Part shown: in pieces, positions 1 through 20,368 of the stretch
Layout of the letters: the number at the start of each line of letters is the position of its first letter
How positions within the stretch are numbered: position 1 is the first letter of the stretch
Virus record (IMG/VR): IMGVR_UViG_2563366803_000006
Direction: 5' to 3' (one strand)
From: a virus
Taxonomy: Duplodnaviria; Heunggongvirae; Uroviricota; Caudoviricetes
DNA length: 20,368 bases
The notes under the pieces: model-generated
The model's input: the letters and a program-made list of their open reading frames with translations, nothing else
Told to the model about the DNA's origin: nothing
Databases searched by the model: none
Program-made: the position numbers and the translations under genes

Positions 1-930
1 CTATGATAACCGCGCATTCAACATGGCTATCTGTTCGTCGTTCATGTCATCAATCCACATACCGTAAATTTCATACACCATCTGCGCAGTTTCATGCCCC
101 ATTTGGCTGGCTATAAATGCCGGGTTCGCTCCTGCCGTCAACAGCCAGCAGGCAAAAGTATGCCGCGTATGGTACGGATTACGGCGGCGAATACCAGCAC
201 GTTTTACTGCTGCATTCCACCTTGCCCCCAAACTGCTTACCGAGTAATAAGGTTTTTGTTTTCCGTTACACACCCTGGGCATGAAAACAAAATGCAGTTT
301 TTGCTTTTCGGTTCTGCCGTACTCCCGATGATAAAAGGTGATTTCGCTTTTGCGATGATGCCCGGTCAGTTTGTATTGCTCCTTCAGTGCTTCAAGAGCA
401 GGCTGCAGTAGTGTTACTGTCCGGATCCCGGCATTTGTTTTTGGGGGACCGAACATATCAAGTATCGTCAGGTTTCTTCTGACATTCACTATTCCCTTTT
501 CGAGATCCACATCCTCCCACGCCAGAGCTGCCAGTTCCCCGTGACGAAGTCCTGAGTAAACTGCAAATTTCCACATGTTCTGGCTCTGTCCTTTTTCACT
601 TTCCATTAATGCATTGAATTCTGTTTTAGATAACGGATCAGGCTTTATTCTGTTTCGCTGTAATTTTTTTACTCCTTCAAATGGTTTGGTTGATATAAAT
701 CCCGACTGATACGCAAAACGTAACAGCGAACAGAGCAGGGCGATATAGTTATCAACTGTGCGCACGGTTCTTCCTTTTTTGTTGGATCTTGGATTATCCA
801 GGTAAAGCGTTTCTCCATGCAGCAGTTCATTCCGGTAGTTTAAGATATCGCTATAACGAATATGTGATATCAGGGTACTTTCACAAATTATTATTCTGAG
901 TGTTTTTAATTGTGATTTCGTTTTCTTCAT
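1..930 (-). CDS. Phage-type tyrosine recombinase (integrase); catalytic domain intact, 5' end probably truncated by IS1
   Basis: 309-codon minus-strand ORF ending with TAG at 3..1. Translation carries catalytic-domain signatures (LRHGE Arg box, HTRHT His-x-x-Arg box, VYEIYG Tyr region). Frame stays open upstream of the Met at 930 as far as the IS1 end at 965. Confidence 0.85.
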   Translation of the reverse strand: MKKTKSQLKTLRIIICESTLISHIRYSDILNYRNELLHGETLYLDNPRSNKKGRTVRTVDNYIALLCSLLRFAYQSGFISTKPFEGVKKLQRNRIKPDPLSKTEFNALMESEKGQSQNMWKFAVYSGLRHGELAALAWEDVDLEKGIVNVRRNLTILDMFGPPKTNAGIRTVTLLQPALEALKEQYKLTGHHRKSEITFYHREYGRTEKQKLHFVFMPRVCNGKQKPYYSVSSLGARWNAAVKRAGIRRRNPYHTRHTFACWLLTAGANPAFIASQMGHETAQMVYEIYGMWIDDMNDEQIAMLNARLS

Positions 931-4880: not shown

Positions 4881-5017
4881 AATCTTAACTACAATATGAT
4901 TCATTTTGATGATTGTTTCATAAGGAACAGTGAAGTAAGATCTAAGAGGAGTTAAATTTTATACAGTATAATCATAATATTGCAGCAAGGTGGTTATAAT
5001 TGAAAGAATATTTAGAT

Positions 5018-6475
5018 ATGAATACATCTCATGTAAGAGTTGTTACTCATATGTGTGGGTTCCTGGTTTGGCTCTATAGTCTTTCAATGTTGCCACCAAT
5101 GGTTGTAGCATTGTTTTATAAAGAAAAAAGCCTGTTCGTTTTCTTTATAACTTTCGTTATATTTTTTTGTATTGGTGGCGGAGCGTGGTATACAACTAAG
5201 AAATCTGGCATTCAATTACGTACCCGTGATGGGTTTATTATAATTGTAATGTTTTGGATTTTGTTTTCTGTTATTAGTGCATTCCCTTTATGGATTGACT
5301 CAGAACTTAATTTAACGTTCATTGATGCTCTGTTTGAAGGGGTTTCTGGAATAACAACAACAGGAGCAACTGTAATTGATGATGTTAGTTCATTACCTCG
5401 GGCATATTTGTACTATCGGTCACAGTTAAATTTTATAGGTGGTTTAGGAGTTATTGTTCTGGCGGTTGCTGTATTGCCATTATTGGGTATTGGTGGTGCA
5501 AAGCTTTATCAGTCAGAAATGCCGGGGCCATTTAAGGATGACAAACTCACTCCCCGCCTGGCCGATACGTCACGGACACTGTGGATAACTTATTCTTTAT
5601 TAGGTATTGCTTGTATTGTCTGTTATAGACTTGCAGGAATGCCTTTGTTTGATGCTATTTGTCACGGGATTTCCACAGTTTCGCTTGGTGGTTTCTCAAC
5701 TCATAGCGAGAGTATCGGATATTTTAATAACTATTTGGTTGAGCTGGTGGCTGGTTCTTTTTCCCTGCTATCGGCTTTCAACTTCACTCTTTGGTATATT
5801 GTTATTAGCAGGAAAACGATAAAACCTTTAATCAGAGATATTGAACTTCGTTTCTTTCTGTTAATAGCCTTAGGGGTGATCATTGTTACCTCTTTCCAGG
5901 TCTGGCATATAGGTATGTATGACTTGCATGGAAGTTTTATTCATTCGTTTTTTCTTGCCAGCTCCATGCTCACTGATAATGGTTTAGCTACGCAGGATTA
6001 TGCAAGCTGGCCCACGCACACGATAGTGTTTTTGCTGTTGTCAAGTTTCTTTGGGGGATGTATAGGTTCAACTTGTGGTGGAATTAAGTCACTTCGATTT
6101 CTTATACTTTTCAAACAAAGCAAACACGAGATAAATCAGCTTTCTCATCCCAGAGCGTTGTTGAGTGTAAATGTAGGAGGGAAGATAGTTACAGATCGTG
6201 TAATGAGGTCTGTATGGAGTTTCTTTTTTCTTTATACTCTCTTCACGGTGTTTTTTATACTGGTGTTAAATGGTATGGGATATGATTTTCTTACATCATT
6301 TGCAACAGTGGCTGCATGTATTAATAATATGGGATTAGGTTTTGGGGCTACTGCATCGTCATTCGGAGTGCTTAATGACATTGCAAAATATTTAATGTGC
6401 ATAGCTATGATTCTTGGTCGCCTTGAAATTTATCCTGTTATTATATTGTTTTCAGGTTTTTTTTGGCGCTCCTAA
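5018..6475 (+). CDS. trkG: TrkG/TrkH-family K+ uptake membrane protein (prophage-borne trkG)
   Basis: 485 aa from ATG 5018; multi-pass membrane protein with TrkH-type motifs (GITTTGATV, GIGGAKLYQSEMPGP, GSTCGGIK). Markedly AT-rich coding sequence. Alternative TTG start at 5000 has a better SD (AAGGTGG). Confidence 0.9.
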   Translation: MNTSHVRVVTHMCGFLVWLYSLSMLPPMVVALFYKEKSLFVFFITFVIFFCIGGGAWYTTKKSGIQLRTRDGFIIIVMFWILFSVISAFPLWIDSELNLTFIDALFEGVSGITTTGATVIDDVSSLPRAYLYYRSQLNFIGGLGVIVLAVAVLPLLGIGGAKLYQSEMPGPFKDDKLTPRLADTSRTLWITYSLLGIACIVCYRLAGMPLFDAICHGISTVSLGGFSTHSESIGYFNNYLVELVAGSFSLLSAFNFTLWYIVISRKTIKPLIRDIELRFFLLIALGVIIVTSFQVWHIGMYDLHGSFIHSFFLASSMLTDNGLATQDYASWPTHTIVFLLLSSFFGGCIGSTCGGIKSLRFLILFKQSKHEINQLSHPRALLSVNVGGKIVTDRVMRSVWSFFFLYTLFTVFFILVLNGMGYDFLTSFATVAACINNMGLGFGATASSFGVLNDIAKYLMCIAMILGRLEIYPVIILFSGFFWRS

Positions 6476-6612: not shown

Positions 6613-7404
6613 ATGAGCGAGAAATTAAAGATAGTCTATCGCCCATTACAAGAATTGTCACCGTATGCGCACAACGCCAGGACGCACAGCCCTGAGCAGG
6701 TGGCACAACTGGTAGAAAGTATTAAGCAATTCGGCTGGACTAATCCGGTGCTGATTGACGAAAAGGGCGAAATTATTGCGGGTCACGGTCGTGTTATGGC
6801 GGCTGAAATGCTCAAAATGGATTCTGTTCCGGTCATTGTTCTGTCTGGCCTGACGGATGAGCAGAAAAAGGCGTACCGCCTGGCAGATAATCGCCTGCCG
6901 ATGAATGCTGGCTGGGATGAAGATCTGTTGCGGATGGAGCTGTCGGACCTAATCAATGCTGATTTTGATGTCTCCCTGACAGGCTTCATCCCGACAGAAA
7001 TTGATGAACTGTTGACGGATGTTTTGCCCGGTACAGGAAATGAGGAGGAGCCGTATACGACGAAAATTGATACGCCTGTTTATGAGCCGTCGGGCGGTAA
7101 ACCGGATATCAGTGAACTGTACGACGATACGAAAACGCAGGAGCTGATCAGCCGGATACGTTCGGCTTCCCTTGAGCCTGATATTGAGAAATTCCTCCTG
7201 TGTGCGGCAGAACGTCACACGGTGTTTAATTTCAGCAGAATTGCGGACTATTACGCTCACGCCCCCGCTGAAATTCAGTGTTTTTTCGAGGAGTCGGCGC
7301 TGGTGATCATTGATTATCAGCAGGCTATTGAAAATGGATTTGTCCGGATGACGCAGCGCATGGTGGAGATCATGCATGGTGGTGAGGAGGAGGAATATGC
7401 GTGA
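6613..7404 (+). CDS. ParB-like nuclease (ParB/sulfiredoxin N-terminal) domain protein
   Basis: 263 aa. N-terminal region with ParB-box-like GHGR motif (GEIIAGHGRVMAAEM), acidic C-terminus. SD AAGGA upstream of ATG 6613. Confidence 0.75.
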   Translation: MSEKLKIVYRPLQELSPYAHNARTHSPEQVAQLVESIKQFGWTNPVLIDEKGEIIAGHGRVMAAEMLKMDSVPVIVLSGLTDEQKKAYRLADNRLPMNAGWDEDLLRMELSDLINADFDVSLTGFIPTEIDELLTDVLPGTGNEEEPYTTKIDTPVYEPSGGKPDISELYDDTKTQELISRIRSASLEPDIEKFLLCAAERHTVFNFSRIADYYAHAPAEIQCFFEESALVIIDYQQAIENGFVRMTQRMVEIMHGGEEEEYA

Positions 7405-8329
7405 TGATTTTTGCGCCTTTATTCTGACTCACGGGCGACCGGACAAAGTTCTGACTTACCGGACGTTGCGTCGTGCTGGCTATACCGGGAAAATTTTTAT
7501 CGTTGTTGATGATGAAGATAAGACACGGCATCAGTACATGGCTGAATTTGGTGAACAGGTGCTGGTGTTTTCCAAAACCGATATCGCCAGTCGTTTTGAC
7601 GAAGCCGATAATTTCTGTGACCGCCGCTCAATTTTTTACGCCCGTAATGCCTGTTTCGACCTGGCAAAACTGGTCGGGTGTAAATACTTCATTCAGCTCG
7701 ATGATGATTATCACGAGTTCCAGTTTCGGGTGGATCGCAACTATGACCAGGCCTATTTTCCGATAAGGAAACTGGATGCGATCCTTTCTGAAATGCTGGC
7801 GTACTACGAATCAATACCTGCTCTTTCCATCGCTATGTCGCAGGGCGGGGATTTTCTTGGTGACAATGGCGGCCATGCTTCGTGGGTGAAACGCAAGGCA
7901 ATGAACAGCTTTATCTGTTCGGTTGATCGACCGTTCTCATTCATGGGGCGCATTAACGAGGATGTGAATACGTACACGAATCTCGGTCGCTGTGGTGAAT
8001 TGTTTATGACGATCGGTGCTGTCCAGTTAGGGCAGAAACAGACGCAGAAAAACAGCGGCGGAATGACCGAGCTGTATCTGGATTCCGGAACCTACGTTAA
8101 AAGTTTTTACTCCGTCATGTATGCGCCGTCGTGCGTAAAAATTTCACTGATGGGTGCCAGCCATAAACGCATTCACCATCAGGTCACCTGGAACAACGCT
8201 GCAGTAAAAATCCTTCACGAAAAATACAGGAAGAAGACACCCTGCATATCAATGGGGGTGACAAATGATTCCGTATTCGAAAGTCGAGTCTCTGGCAGCG
8301 TGCCGGATGACTGCACAACAAATCGCTGA
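7397..8329 (+). CDS. Hypothetical protein with GT-A-like nucleotide-sugar transferase signature (DxD-type)
   Basis: ATG 7397 preceded by strong SD GAGGAGGAGGAA and overlapping the ParB-like stop (translational coupling). Alternating beta-strand/acidic pattern (FILTHGRPD, IFIVVDDEDK, YFIQLDDDYHEF). Function inferred only from this pattern. Confidence 0.6.
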   Translation: MRDDFCAFILTHGRPDKVLTYRTLRRAGYTGKIFIVVDDEDKTRHQYMAEFGEQVLVFSKTDIASRFDEADNFCDRRSIFYARNACFDLAKLVGCKYFIQLDDDYHEFQFRVDRNYDQAYFPIRKLDAILSEMLAYYESIPALSIAMSQGGDFLGDNGGHASWVKRKAMNSFICSVDRPFSFMGRINEDVNTYTNLGRCGELFMTIGAVQLGQKQTQKNSGGMTELYLDSGTYVKSFYSVMYAPSCVKISLMGASHKRIHHQVTWNNAAVKILHEKYRKKTPCISMGVTNDSVFESRVSGSVPDDCTTNR

Positions 8330-8516
8330 CGTTCTGGATGTTGATCTGAACCGACTGAAAGAAAATCGGGAAGCAATGACAGATTTTTATGCGGCCATCC
8401 GTAAGGGCAGAGCGAAAGGTGAAGCCGAGTTACGAGCGGCATTGTTTAAGCTTGCCAGAAAAGGGGATGCCTTTGCTCTGCGCGAACTACTCAGGGTGGA
8501 TAAAAATCAGGACTAA
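8307..8516 (+). CDS. Small putative DNA-binding (HTH-like) protein upstream of terS
   Basis: 69 aa MTAQQIADVLDVDLNRLKENRE... helical and basic; start overlaps the upstream gene; stop is 3 nt before the terS ATG and in the same frame. Confidence 0.5.
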   Translation: MTAQQIADVLDVDLNRLKENREAMTDFYAAIRKGRAKGEAELRAALFKLARKGDAFALRELLRVDKNQD

Positions 8517-8519
8517 CTG

Positions 8520-9614
8520 ATGAGCAGACCGGACTGGGGGGCGTTGCAGCAGGAGTATATTGCTGAATACACCCGCTCCGGTATATCTCCGGTGGCATGG
8601 TGTGAAGCAAGGGGACTGAATTACGCAACAGCCCGTCGTTACATCAAAAAAACTCCGAAAAATGCGCAGACAGAAATGCGCAAAACTGCGCAAAAAAGTG
8701 CGCAGAAAAAATCTGCGCAGACTGCACAAAAGCGGAACGAAAAATCTCAGGAAAAAAAGCCAGTATTCGATGCGGGCCTGAATGAGGGCGACGCGGAGGA
8801 ATTTTCGTTCTGTCCCGATGAATTCGGCATTTCTGACCAGCAGGCTAAGTTTGCGATGCTTGTTGCTCAGGGTAAAAAGCCGACAGAGGCGTACCGACTA
8901 GCCGGTTATGAGGGGCAAGGTGCGACAGCTAACAGCAACGCCAGTCGTATGCTTAGAAATGCCAGGGTTTATCGTGCTATCAGCTACTTCCGCAATCAGT
9001 ACCAGAAACGCTATACCGCAGACCTGGATTTACTGGTGAGCCAGTTGATGGTCATTGTCCAGGCCGACCCCAATCAGTTGGCACAATTTCGCCGTGTTAA
9101 CTGCCGTTATTGCTGGGGCGAGAATCATCTCTACCAGTGGCGTGATATTGCAGAATTCGATAAGGCTGCGGCACAGGCCTCCAGAGATGGTAAACCCGAG
9201 CCGGAATATGGAGGCCTCGGCTTTGTTGATAACGCCATACCCAATCCGGATTGCCCGAAGTGCTGCGGTGAGGGAACGGGACAGCTTTATATGGCTGATA
9301 CCACACTGCTTGATGGGGATGCGCGGCAATTATATGCAGGGTCAAAGCTCGGAAAATACGGTGTTGAGATCCTGCTGGAGGATAAGGCTGCCGCCCGGCG
9401 TGAATTGTTGCGTTTGCTTTCTGCTGGCGGGGCATTATGTGCAGATAAGCGGCTACAGGAACTGGAAATTGAACGGCGCAGAATAGAAAACCAGAAGCTG
9501 CACAAAGAGATCGAAACGGTGGAAGATAATGAACATCCCCAGCCTGTGGCGATCAATATTAATGTGGTTGATGCCAGAGTAAGGAGTGATGAAGATGATC
9601 TCTCCGACGCTTAA
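8520..9614 (+). CDS. Terminase small subunit (long form with N-terminal HTH, AQK low-complexity linker, Terminase_2-like core and C-terminal Cys cluster)
   Basis: 364 aa. Core motif AYRLAGYEGQGATANSNASRMLRNARVYRAI typical of small terminase subunits; lies immediately upstream of and overlaps terL; CRYC...CPKCC cysteines at 9102-9266. Confidence 0.7.
   Translation: MSRPDWGALQQEYIAEYTRSGISPVAWCEARGLNYATARRYIKKTPKNAQTEMRKTAQKSAQKKSAQTAQKRNEKSQEKKPVFDAGLNEGDAEEFSFCPDEFGISDQQAKFAMLVAQGKKPTEAYRLAGYEGQGATANSNASRMLRNARVYRAISYFRNQYQKRYTADLDLLVSQLMVIVQADPNQLAQFRRVNCRYCWGENHLYQWRDIAEFDKAAAQASRDGKPEPEYGGLGFVDNAIPNPDCPKCCGEGTGQLYMADTTLLDGDARQLYAGSKLGKYGVEILLEDKAAARRELLRLLSAGGALCADKRLQELEIERRRIENQKLHKEIETVEDNEHPQPVAININVVDARVRSDEDDLSDA
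8663..8728. repeat. Cluster of five TGCGCA hexamers (plus one TGCACA) inside terS
   Basis: Exact TGCGCA at 8663, 8677, 8687, 8699 and 8714, each followed by an A-rich tract; encodes the AQK-repeat linker of TerS. Confidence 0.8.
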
Positions 9615-10896
9615 TGTGCCTCAGGCGCGATTTCTTTCAATGCCCCATAAATTTAAAGCCTATATTGCTGGTTTTGGCTCGGGCAAAACATGGGTTGGGT
9701 GTGGCGGCATATGCAAGGGGATTTGGGAGCATCCAGGTATAAATCAGGGATATTTTGCGCCAACGTATCCCCAAATTCGCGATATTTTTTACCCTACAGT
9801 GGAAGAAGTTGCTGCTGACTGGGGATTGAACGTAAAAATTAATGAGGGAAATAAAGAGGTTCACTTTTATTACGGACGCCAGTATCGGGGAACCACTGTC
9901 TGCAGATCGATGGAGAAGCCACAAACGATCGTCGGTTTCAAAATTGGTAATGCGTTGGTGGATGAACTGGACATTTTGCCGAAGGAAAAAGCCAGAACGG
10001 CGTGGCGCAAGATAATTGCACGTATGCGTTATAAGATTGATGGACTTCGCAACGGTATTGACGTTACAACCACGCCGGAAGGATTCAAATTTGTCTACGA
10101 GCAGTTTGTTAAAGCCGTGCGTGAAAAAACAGAGCTGGCCTCACTGTATGGTCTGGTGCAGGCATCTACTTTCGATAATGAAAAGAACCTGCCAGCAGAT
10201 TACATTCCTTCGCTTCTTGAATCATACCCTCCAGAGCTGATTAAAGCCTATCTTCGAGGACAGTTTACTAACCTGACAAGTGGTACTGTTTACCATCAGT
10301 TTGACCGGAAACTGAATAATTGCGAAGAAGTGGAGCAGCCAGGGGAGCCGATTTATATTGGGATGGATTTTAACGTTGGAAAGATGGCGGGAATCGTCCA
10401 TGTGCTGCGTTTGGGGCTTCCATGTGCGGTAACTGAAATCATCAATGCCTACGATACGCCGGATATGATCCGCATCATTAAAGAACGCTTCTGGCTGTAT
10501 GATGGGAATGATTACCGGAAAGTGAGGGAAATTTATATTTATCCAGATGCTTCCGGGGACTCCAGAAAATCAAGTAACGCAAGTACGACGGATATAGCCC
10601 AGCTTAAGCAGGCTGGTTTTAACGTTGTGGTGAACAGCTCGAACCCGCCAGTAAAAGATCGCGTTAACTCAATGAATGCAATGTTCTGCAATGCCAATGG
10701 TGAGCGTCGCTATAAAGTTAATGTGAAGCGTTGCCCGTTATATGCCGAATCTCTGGAGCAACAGGTCTGGGATGAGAAGGGGGAGCCTGATAAAAAATCT
10801 GGCAATGATCACCCGAATGATGCCGGAGGTTATTTCATCGTTAAGCAATTCCCTATTGTCAAACCGACCGGAAGAGTCACATCACTTCGGATTTAA
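9595..10896 (+). CDS. Terminase large subunit
   Basis: Walker A-like YIAGFGSGKTW near the N-terminus; C-terminal nuclease-like region; SD AAGGAG (9581-9586) 8 nt before ATG 9595. In-frame alternatives at GTG 9586 and ATG 9589. Confidence 0.9.
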   Translation: MISPTLNVPQARFLSMPHKFKAYIAGFGSGKTWVGCGGICKGIWEHPGINQGYFAPTYPQIRDIFYPTVEEVAADWGLNVKINEGNKEVHFYYGRQYRGTTVCRSMEKPQTIVGFKIGNALVDELDILPKEKARTAWRKIIARMRYKIDGLRNGIDVTTTPEGFKFVYEQFVKAVREKTELASLYGLVQASTFDNEKNLPADYIPSLLESYPPELIKAYLRGQFTNLTSGTVYHQFDRKLNNCEEVEQPGEPIYIGMDFNVGKMAGIVHVLRLGLPCAVTEIINAYDTPDMIRIIKERFWLYDGNDYRKVREIYIYPDASGDSRKSSNASTTDIAQLKQAGFNVVVNSSNPPVKDRVNSMNAMFCNANGERRYKVNVKRCPLYAESLEQQVWDEKGEPDKKSGNDHPNDAGGYFIVKQFPIVKPTGRVTSLRI

Positions 10897-18316: not shown

Positions 18317-18778
18317 ATGAGGTTATGGATGTTTATTCTTAATCAGAAAATTATCATTGGTGGAGAACGCTGGTTTACGCCAATGAAGGACTTAAAACCT
18401 GTAGACGGGTTAAAACTGTTGGTGGCAAGCAGCGATAACGATCAGTATCGCTCCCGTAATGCATTAATCCGTCGCCACATTGAGAAAATGGATGCCAGTT
18501 TGCACGTCGGAACGAAGGAGTTTGATATTTCAAAGGTTTCCGAGGTGGATTCTGTTGATGATTTACTCATTGATAATGCCGCTCGTTATCTGCTGAAAGA
18601 CTGGAAAGGGGTTGGTGAACTGGTTAATGGTGTTGAGGTTGCACTGGAATATACGGCAGAACGAGGGATCGCGCTGCTCAAGCAGAATCCAGAGTTGTAC
18701 TGGCAGATCCTTGCAGAAGCAGCCAGCATCGCCCAGGGTAAAGAGCAGCAGAAGCAGGATACGATAAAAAAGCCATAG
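18317..18778 (+). CDS. Tail assembly chaperone (gpG-like)
   Basis: 153-codon ORF ending ...TIKKP with slippery heptamer A_AAA_AAG (18766-18772) 4 nt before the stop. In-frame alternative starts at 18329 and 18383. Confidence 0.6.
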   Translation: MRLWMFILNQKIIIGGERWFTPMKDLKPVDGLKLLVASSDNDQYRSRNALIRRHIEKMDASLHVGTKEFDISKVSEVDSVDDLLIDNAARYLLKDWKGVGELVNGVEVALEYTAERGIALLKQNPELYWQILAEAASIAQGKEQQKQDTIKKP

Positions 18779-18935: not shown

Positions 18936-18990
18936 GGTGATGCTGCCAACTTACTGATTTAGTGTATGATGGTGTTTTTGAGGTGCTCCA

Positions 18991-19266
18991 GTGGCTTCTG
19001 TTTCTATCAGCTGTCCCTCCTGTTCAGCTACTGACGGGGTGGTGCGTAACGGCAAAAGCACCGCCGGACATCAGCGCTATCTCTGCTCTCACTGCCGTAA
19101 AACATGGCAACTGCAGTTCACTTACACCGCTTCTCAACCCGGTACGCACCAGAAAATCATAGATATGGCCATGAATGGCGTTGGATGCCGGGCAACAGCC
19201 CGCATTATGGGCGTTGGCCTCAACACGATTTTACGTCACTTAAAAAACTCAGGCCGCAGTCGGTAA
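18991..19266 (+). CDS. insA: IS1 InsA
   Basis: 91-aa product identical to copy 1 InsA; both nucleotide differences are synonymous in this frame. Confidence 0.95.
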
Positions 19267-19688
19267 CCTCGCGCATACAGCCGGGCAGTGACGTCATCGT
19301 CTGCGCGGAAATGGACGAACAGTGGGGCTATGTCGGGGCTAAATCGCGCCAGCGCTGGCTGTTTTACGCGTATGACAGGCTCCGGAAGACGGTTGTTGCG
19401 CACGTATTCGGTGAACGCACTATGGCGACGCTGGGGCGTCTTATGAGCCTGCTGTCACCCTTTGACGTGGTGATATGGATGACGGATGGCTGGCCGCTGT
19501 ATGAATCCCGCCTGAAGGGAAAGCTGCACGTAATCAGCAAGCGATATACGCAGCGAATTGAGCGGCATAACCTGAATCTGAGGCAGCACCTGGCACGGCT
19601 GGGACGGAAGTCGCTGTCGTTTTCAAAATCGGTGGAGCTGCATGACAAAGTCATCGGGCATTATCTGAACATAAAACACTATCAATAA
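19185..19688 (+). CDS. insB: IS1 InsB frame (InsAB' by -1 frameshift)
   Basis: Corresponds to copy 1 coordinates 1215-1718; A6C motif at 19242-19248. In this copy the B frame stays open further upstream (to 19104) because TGA is replaced by AGA. Confidence 0.9.
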
Positions 19689-19703
19689 GTTGGAGTCATT
19701 ACC

Positions 19704-20368
19704 CTGTTGATTTAACCCTTACAAAACAATCAGGGACTGGCAATCGTTTTGTTTTACAGAACTCAGGTAATGCAGAACTACCGTTTTCTGTCAGGGTGTG
19801 GGGTTCCAGTACTCGACAAAACGTTTTTGAGGTTGGCACGTCTGCTGCGTATCTGTTTTATGCGCAAAAAACGTCAGCAGGCCAGTTGTTTGATGTAAAT
19901 GGCGCTATTAATTGCACAACGCTGAATCAGTCATCAGACCGCGACCTTAAAGACGATATTCTCGTTATCAGCGACGCGACGAAAGCAATCCGTAAAATGA
20001 ACGGATACACCTACACGCTCAGGGAAAACGGGATGCCTTATGCTGGCGTTATTGCACAGGAAGTAATGGAGGCGATACCAGAAGCTGTGGGATCGTTTAC
20101 TCATTATGGTGAAGAGTTGCAAGGTCCGACCGTTGACGGCAACGAGCTACGCGAAGAAACGCGCTATCTTAATGTTGACTACGCCGCCGTGACGGGCTTA
20201 CTTGTTCAGTTCGCCCGTGAAACAGATGATCGCGTTACCGCGCTGGAAGAGGAAAACACAACGCTACGTCAAAATCTGGCAACAGCAGACACCCGGATCA
20301 GCACTCTGGAAAATCAGGTAAGCGAACTGGTTGCACTTGTCCGGCAGTTAACAGGAAGCGAACATTGA
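19704..20368 (+). pseudogene. 3' fragment of a tail fibre/tailspike gene with C-terminal intramolecular chaperone (peptidase S74-type) domain
   Basis: Frame open from the IS1 boundary (codons from 19706) to TGA at 20366-20368. Translation contains SDRDLKDDI...YTYTL...GVIAQEVMEAIPEAV, matching the autoproteolytic chaperone domain pattern, then a coiled-coil tail. No start codon context at the 5' end. Confidence 0.7.

Follow-up and report, generated by a model that had tools for sequence, protein, structure and literature searches.

The window analyzed here is a 20,368-nucleotide stretch of viral DNA (IMG/VR record IMGVR_UViG_2563366803_000006; positions are counted from its first letter) that contains a Rac-like Escherichia coli prophage, in which Pfam and PHROG matches give the gene order TerS, TerL, portal, and MuF-like protein. 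The element under study is an array of short palindromes, TGCGCA, inside terS, the gene for the small terminase subunit, where it directly follows the codon for residue 44. TerS matches the Pfam family Terminase_2 (PF03592) over amino acids (aa) 122–316 with 34.6 bits, compared with a curated cut-off of 26.1, and matches phrog_51 over its full length (E = 8e-76). The gene is annotated as ‘terminase small subunit’ in 912 E. coli genomes, and a search of 5,426 complete E. coli genomes gave its 5' region of 281 nucleotides (nt) in 912, with one place per genome as the median. The features are as follows, with HTH standing for helix-turn-helix.

8520..9614, plus strand: terS, small terminase subunit of 364 aa, with N-terminal HTH, basic low-complexity linker and a Terminase_2 domain with a 4-Cys insertion (Pfam, phrog_51, annotation)
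8520..8651, plus strand: N-terminal three-helix HTH (aa 1–44), proposed reader of the hexamers (AlphaFold2, conservation)
8655..8735: whole array, five perfect sites and one decayed site with A-rich spacers between them, encoding the start of the TerS linker (PKNAQTEMRKTAQKSAQKKSAQTAQK)
8663..8668: TGCGCA site 1, AAT GCG CAG = NAQ
8677..8682: TGCGCA site 2, in another reading frame, ATG CGC AAA = MRK
8687..8692: TGCGCA site 3, ACT GCG CAA = TAQ
8699..8704: TGCGCA site 4, AGT GCG CAG = SAQ
8714..8719: TGCGCA site 5, TCT GCG CAG = SAQ
8723..8728: decayed site 6, TGCACA, which is TGCGCA in most close relatives (32 unique relatives aligned)
9586..10896, plus strand: terL, large terminase subunit (Terminase_6N and 6C; Pfam E = 1.1e-32 and 3.4e-10), which would cut and translocate the DNA marked by TerS

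All five hexamers reported in the initial annotation, and the degenerate TGCACA beside them, are present at these positions, with spacings of 14, 10, 12, and 15 base pairs (bp) between sites 1 to 5, and the A-rich tracts that it described are A5–A7 runs that flank the sites at 8646, 8658, 8692, 8706, 8740, and 8752. Tandem Repeats Finder describes the region as an imperfect 36-nt repeat in 2.1 copies. The whole window holds 13 TGCGCA compared with 9.0 ± 2.9 in shuffled sequences, so there is no overall enrichment, yet five of the 13 lie inside 57 bp, a clustering that 200,000 uniform placements never reached. Of the remaining eight, two are in copies of the insertion sequence IS1 (1427 and 19397), and no second cluster was found in the 20 kb. 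From the background rate of single hexamers, about one per 2.5 kb, at least four within 60 bp would be expected some 0.004 times per 4.6 Mb. Hence, in the two respects of location and uniqueness the array has what a pac site should have, as it lies within terS, is the sole cluster of the window, and has a median of one place per E. coli genome. There is no GATC in 8650–8740, and the window array therefore lacks the feature on which Dam-gated packaging of the P1 type depends.

The hexamers are, as judged from sequence comparison, selected at the level of DNA, and coding alone is no explanation for them. When the codons for aa 44–78 were redrawn synonymously from the codon usage of the window itself (100,000 draws), the mean number of TGCGCA was 0.69 and five or more were obtained in a single draw (P(≥5) = 1e-5). 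This result, together with the different frame of the site at 8677, upholds the earlier statement that coding constraint is insufficient to account for the identity of the hexamers. Specifically, four of the perfect sites and the decayed site are written nnT GCG CAR (xAQ), and the silent third-position T is kept while the residue that it helps to encode varies (N, T, S, S, T). Such a pattern could be given in one lineage by recent tandem duplication, so that the decisive evidence must be comparative. Among homologues, Ala-Gln dipeptides are written T|GCG|CA in 385 of 419 cases (92%) within the array zone and in 89 of 313 cases (28%) elsewhere in the same genes. Hexamers of the TGCGCA class occur in all three frames (397, 92, and 25 occurrences), where they encode TAQ, [LMV]R[KTN], or CA, and the same hexamer thus underlies unrelated peptides, namely TAQ, LRK, and CAE for TGCGCA, and SAN and NCE for TGCGAA. 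In Klebsiella arrays all three frames are used within 65 nt (PTAQTAQKPAQKKLRTAQKEKCAEE), while TGCGAA is read TGC GAA in Pasteurella-type TerS with lysine at position 39 (K39), giving NCETNCESNCET, and nnT GCG AAT in enterobacterial K39 TerS, giving SANKSAN. Neither the use of three frames nor the holding of synonymous positions is what a plain coding repeat would display. Copy number ranges from 3 to 9 and spacing peaks at 7, 9, 10, 12, 14, 15, and 16 bp with a mean of about 11.6, and this free variation indicates that arrays turn over while the hexamer is kept.

Some further observations concern the arrays themselves. Runs of A6–A9 are abundant in them (window 8646–8758; loci L020, L030, L036, L128, and L200). 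Many database ‘proteins’ of 44–84 aa consist of the TerS N-terminal domain followed by a frameshifted reading of the array (P0121–P0240), and these truncated entries may be sequencing errors, real pseudogenes, or the outcome of slippage-prone sites able to yield an HTH-only product. In Klebsiella-type terS (L005, L006, and L008) three further TGCGCA, which encode NVAQAIAQQQKA, lie at positions 348–403, about 160 nt downstream of the main array; none is found there in the window, and the trio could be explained either as another recognition cluster or by chance recurrence of AQ dipeptides. One contig, L201 (IMGVR_UViG_3300015188_000008), ends inside the array with Illumina adapter sequence AGATCGGAAGAGC.

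The protein segment directly before the array is a probable DNA-binding domain. AlphaFold2 models TerS aa 1–60 with a predicted local distance difference test (pLDDT) score of 73.5 and with helices at 6–20, 24–31, and 35–38; G32-L33-N34 form the turn, and R39 thereby falls on the recognition helix, whose residues are A38, R39, R40, and Y41 (the R39 codon is at 8634–8636). Every PDB match of the model in Foldseek is to an HTH DNA-binding domain (LuxR/FixJ type, sigma region 4, DeoR, and IstA), none of them significant (E ≥ 0.9), and the domain has no Pfam family and no PDB sequence match, so that the model supports a fold class of ‘generic three-helix HTH’ only. The HTH is conserved in the 311 loci that were fetched, and a profile search of the database with the N-terminal alignment gave truncated proteins of 44–84 aa only and no new classes.

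For comparison, loci were fetched by the N-terminal domain alone from 80 species-level genomes, IMG/VR viral contigs, and named phages, and the final tally comprised 213 unique combinations of HTH and array from phages of Enterobacterales, Pasteurella, Vibrio, and Aeromonas and from unassigned viral contigs. A short-repeat array nearly always stands directly after the HTH in these loci. The same hexamer cluster stands in the same place, after the conserved N-terminal segment WCEAQGLNYATARRYIKK, in TerS homologues of only 35–45% identity; these belong to E. coli phage PHB10, to Klebsiella prophages, and to an E. coli prophage whose TerS has another C-terminal domain. Arrays are likewise found at 35–60% identity in TerS of Klebsiella, Yersinia, Providencia, Pasteurella, Aeromonas, and Vibrio phages, with differing copy number and spacing, and the Yersinia and Providencia phages have TGCGAA(T) instead, with a helix that reads ...STAKRYIKI. 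The hexamer follows the residues at positions 39–41 of helix 3 (written after A38):

A-RRY: TGCGCA dominant in 139 of 143 loci
A-KRY: TGCGAA/TTCGCA dominant in 52 of 53 loci
A-RRH: TGCGCA dominant in 5 of 5 loci
A-RTR (Stx phages): GATCAT dominant in 11 of 11 loci

One HRY variant of the Rac-like sequence has TGCGCA. The few loci that deviate have a decayed array, are pseudogenes, or stop at a contig end, and in none of the 213 loci was the repeat of another class found. Residue 39 is the only position of the 43-residue HTH that separates the TGCGCA class from the TGCGAA class. Both Enterobacterales and Pasteurella-type phages pair K39 with TGCGAA, the latter in another frame and with other surrounding sequence, and R39 phages of Aeromonas and Vibrio have seven and five TGCGCA, respectively. 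That Arg39 would pair with the G of the C:G at hexamer position 5, and Lys39 with A:T, is chemically reasonable.

The Stx-phage lineage is the clearest natural experiment on the switching of the hexamer. Downstream of HTHs that start MAKLDWKKLEQAFRREH and have the helix NTARTRIKM stand four or five (C/T)GATCAT, spaced 12 bp, and two relic TGCGCA, while sister HTHs, 72–76% identical, with the helix GTARRYIKL are followed by five to seven TGCGCA and no GATCAT. It may be added that in Stx-converting 933W-like phages (L173, L175, and L260–L298) the array encodes IDHEIDHKTDHEIDH and each unit holds the Dam site GATC. The HTH and the array travel as one module, as the R and K classes are both found on the same C-terminal families and the R/K state changes at least eight times on the tree of C-terminal domains. 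This tree-based count was used because single-linkage clustering of the C-terminal domains merged nearly all of them into one family, and the tree of the 42-residue HTH was resolved too poorly for a reliable count of independent switches. TGCGCA is absent from the terS of Pseudomonas F116, Acinetobacter 4316, and Serratia Parlo, whose TerS proteins have the Terminase_2/4-Cys C-terminal part and lack the HTH. In these three, the most frequent hexamer within terS or upstream of it reaches at most three copies per 100 nt, compared with four to seven in HTH-bearing genes. In phage Rac-SA53 (L003, KU052037.1; 1450–2478) a deletion that fused terS to another gene (annotated ‘gpOterS’) has left it without the HTH and with only two TGCGCA of the array; LT-IIa toxin genes lie directly upstream of this terS homologue.

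We propose, with a probability of about 70%, that the array at 8655–8735 is a TerS recognition element used for packaging, that is, a pac recognition element, because the hexamers look to be DNA-selected, adjoin the HTH, switch with residues 39–41, and are absent without the HTH. The suggestion of a pac recognition site within terS in the initial annotation is thus supported by the several frames, the codon bias, the conservation over large distances, the adjacency of the HTH, and the switching with helix residues. In the proposed mechanism, the N-terminal HTH (aa 1–43), tethered by a flexible basic linker, would read the very DNA that codes for the start of that linker, in which the five or six copies of TGCGCA, flanked by A-tracts and about 12 bp apart, would be the binding sites. 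Residues 39–41 would choose the hexamer, with Arg39 for TGCGCA, Lys39 for TGCGAA, and Arg-Thr-Arg for GATCAT. As single hexamers are common, one contact between an HTH and a hexamer would be insufficient, and recognition should be multivalent: several HTHs of one TerS oligomer would bind neighboring sites about one helical turn apart, which would confer specificity for the cluster. The DNA, rich in A-tracts, would probably be bent or wrapped by the bound TerS, TerL would cut nearby, and headful packaging would start. We infer the physical binding, the multivalent recognition, the wrapping, and the link to the packaging cut from the patterns above.

Several points weigh against this proposal. 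The covariation could in part be linkage from a few ancestral switches, since the HTH adjoins the array, and it would then represent some three clearly separate contexts and not 213 events. A few RRY loci have decayed arrays. Across the 32 unique close relatives the hexamers are polymorphic (TGTGCA, TGCGCG, and TACGCA, with unit deletions of 9 and 27 bp), and the hexamer columns are not clearly more conserved than the spacers (0.038 vs 0.050). Single sites would hence be dispensable, and short-term constraint is not demonstrated; the frequent loss of single hexamers is what redundancy predicts and is not positive evidence. The model of the HTH is of moderate confidence only, with a short helix 3. 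The prophage is interrupted by two IS1 copies and its early genes and most of its tail genes are gone, so that here, barring use by a helper phage, the array is probably a relic. Our literature search returned no binding, footprint, packaging-end, or transduction data for any member of the family and no description of a TGCGCA array in terS, most subscription journals being outside its coverage. The LF82 prophage Gally, considered as a relative with a mapped pac site on account of a coverage step inside its terS (10.1101/2022.10.28.514194), has a 140-aa Sf6-type TerS and falls outside the family.

Other explanations can be given for the same array. It might bind the HTH of TerS and act in regulation, in autoregulation of the terminase or in timing, with the packaging site elsewhere. 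The covariation shows that HTH and hexamers belong together and not what their binding achieves, and a protein bound within the terS-terL transcription unit could block RNA polymerase. TerS DNA-binding domains are nevertheless established as readers of pac or cos, the pac sites that are known (P22, SPP1, and P1; PMC11260489, PMC4737164) are situated within or next to terS, and the 20-kb window has no second hexamer cluster, so that we consider a purely regulatory function unlikely. That the array has no function at the DNA level and arose as replication slippage or unequal crossing-over built up a low-complexity Ala/Gln/Lys linker, its nucleotide identity stemming from recent duplication and concerted evolution, would agree with the 2.1-copy, 36-nt repeat, with the deletion of whole units among close relatives, and with the simple composition of the linker. 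This origin is already disfavored, and we regard it as very improbable, as it does not account for the same hexamer being kept in lineages with unalignable arrays, for three reading frames that give unrelated peptides, for a codon bias of 92% vs 28%, or for a hexamer that switches exactly with HTH residues 39–41.

A role in the messenger RNA, where UGCGCA hairpins would modulate the translation, stability, or frameshifting of terS, has in its favor that the RNA of 8650–8745 folds at –31.7 kcal/mol (z = –5.35 vs shuffles) and that runs of 6–7 A lie between the stems. Repeated palindromes fold well automatically, however, and an RNA structure would not covary with a residue of the HTH. Moreover, the non-palindromic TGCGAA array of Pasteurella has no excess folding (z = +1.36), which means that RNA structure is not the conserved property, and the GATCAT class is a direct repeat; we give such a role a slender chance at best. 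It is scarcely credible, finally, that the hexamers are bound by another protein, either a host factor or the product of the 83-aa open reading frame (ORF) at 8265–8516, even though the latter adjoins terS and matches phrog_309, ‘terminase small subunit’ (E = 8e-23). A host factor leaves the class switches among phages of the same host unexplained. A homologue of the ORF occurs in only 64 of 255 fetched loci, nearly all of which have arrays, and it is thus not the conserved partner of the array. The ORF itself encodes an HTH-like segment (MTAQQIADVLDV...) and stops 3 nt ahead of terS.

As for the packaging mode of the phage, the nearest characterized relatives of TerL, at 40–44% identity, are from Jersey-like and EP23-like siphophages, which are headful packagers. 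Of the SPP1-like headful context that had been proposed for the head module, the order TerS, TerL, portal, and MuF-like protein stands, as does a TerL of the Terminase_6 class; these features and the TerL relatives are consistent with headful packaging by the window phage and fall short of proof. Within the Terminase_2 domain of TerS a four-Cys motif (CRYC ... CPKCC) is inserted at 9102–9266 (aa 195–249), which is probably a zinc ribbon, and its first CxxC is also present in the N-terminal sequences of the TerS proteins of F116, Acinetobacter 4316, and Serratia Parlo. A stretch of 590 nt encoding the C-terminal part of TerS has 92% nucleotide identity with Actinobacillus phage vB_Apl-pPE4 (PP818812.1; 20956–21570). 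For hosts as distant as E. coli and Actinobacillus pleuropneumoniae so high an identity is unexpected, and it suggests recent transfer or contamination.

The prophage as a whole looks defective, as it has neither the early region (integrase to lysis genes) nor most of the tail genes, and it probably no longer packages anything by itself. Two copies of IS1 of 768 bp each, in direct orientation and about 99% identical, lie 17,970 bp apart at 966–1733, adjoining the integrase gene (1–930, minus strand), and at 18936–19703, between a tail assembly chaperone gene (18317–18778) and the C-terminal fragment of a tail-fibre gene (19796–20368). The pair flanks the lysis, trkG, and head genes and resembles a composite element. 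As in the Rac prophage of K-12, a full-length gene for a TrkH/TrkG potassium transporter (5000–6475) is situated inside the prophage, between the lysis genes and a gene for a ParB-like nuclease-domain protein (6613–7404). Just upstream of the terminase genes, the ParB-like gene overlaps that of a TET-associated glycosyltransferase (TAGT, ‘GREB1-related’, 7376–8329), and the two may form a DNA-modification module, although no TET/JBP gene was seen near them.

The significance of the proposed element goes beyond this prophage. The pac sites of few headful phages are known, that of ES18, for example, being “not known yet” (PMC11260489), and it has to be explained how a ring of TerS HTHs attains sequence specificity, given that the SF6 domain binds DNA non-specifically (PMC4737164). 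The present TerS family offers a readable case, with a short site in many copies, natural switches tied to one to three residues, and a large set of prophages that includes Stx-converting phages. Three aspects appear to be new: a widespread extra N-terminal HTH has an array of putative binding sites in the DNA that codes for its linker, its proposed specificity can be deduced from two or three residues, and Stx-converting phages belong to the family, with a GATC-containing variant reminiscent of P1. The array also shows that a DNA signal can be written into coding sequence by way of a disordered linker that tolerates any reading frame. If confirmed, the recognition element would predict where lateral and generalized transduction start and which satellites or plasmids can be mobilized, and it would make packaging signals designable for phage-based delivery. 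We further suggest, at slightly less than even odds, that HTH and array form a portable, self-contained cassette of packaging specificity, in which the sites bound by the protein double as the coding sequence of its flexible linker, and two or three residues of the helix decide which hexamer is recognized (RRY for TGCGCA, KRY for TGCGAA, and RTR for GATCAT). Were this so, the sequence of a prophage from Enterobacterales, Pasteurellaceae, Vibrio, or Aeromonas could reveal its pac specificity, the GATC-containing array of Stx phages would add control of packaging by Dam methylation, as in P1, and specificity could be re-programmed by a single R39K change and a matching array.

The P1 pac hexamers, the SPP1 boxes, and the R-sites of lambda cosB are known examples of short TerS-binding repeats within or next to terS. 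The hexamers of P1 form two groups that flank the cut, are controlled by Dam methylation, and work with integration host factor (IHF). The window array is like P1 pac in being a hexamer cluster (TGATCA/G in P1) inside the gene of the recognition subunit (pacA in P1), where specificity would likewise come from the number of copies and not from a single long site, and the Stx-phage members of the TerS family are like P1 in their GATC-containing hexamer, (C/T)GATCAT; P1 pac has seven hexanucleotide repeats (PMC11260489). PacA, however, is unrelated to the TerS of the window, whose array is a single cluster without GATC. In lambda, the winged HTH of gpNu1 reads several short R-sites of cosB next to or within its own gene and so anchors TerL for a cut nearby, and the likeness to the window lies in an N-terminal HTH of the small terminase subunit and in repeated short elements at its own gene. 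The differences are that cos packaging is not headful, that the three R elements are of 16 bp, lie outside the coding region and depend on IHF, and that the proteins have no sequence similarity; the subsites of cos are named in PMC4669245. P22, a headful phage, has its pac site inside the coding sequence of terS (gene 3; PMC11260489), as is proposed here for the window phage, but that site is a single asymmetric one of 22 bp without a repeat array, and its TerS is structurally different.

A further parallel in both protein and DNA is to SPP1 and SF6. SPP1 G1P, which binds the pacL and pacR boxes, belongs to the Terminase_2 family, as does the C-terminal part of the window TerS. Where its TerS gene begins, SPP1 has pac DNA made up of sets of direct repeats, in which A/T runs alternate with GC steps and favor wrapping, and in the model for SPP1/SF6 the DNA wraps a ring of HTHs spaced about one helical turn (PMC4737164). 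The window array matches this pac DNA in its location in terS and in its alternation of A-tracts and GC cores (PMC4737164). The SF6 DNA-binding domain, for its part, binds weakly and is not sequence-specific (PMC4737164), whereas the window TerS has an additional N-terminal HTH, and its repeats lie wholly in linker-coding DNA. As the residues of the recognition helix covary with the sequence of these repeats, a base-specific reading of the DNA by this HTH is implied, unlike that by the SF6 domain.

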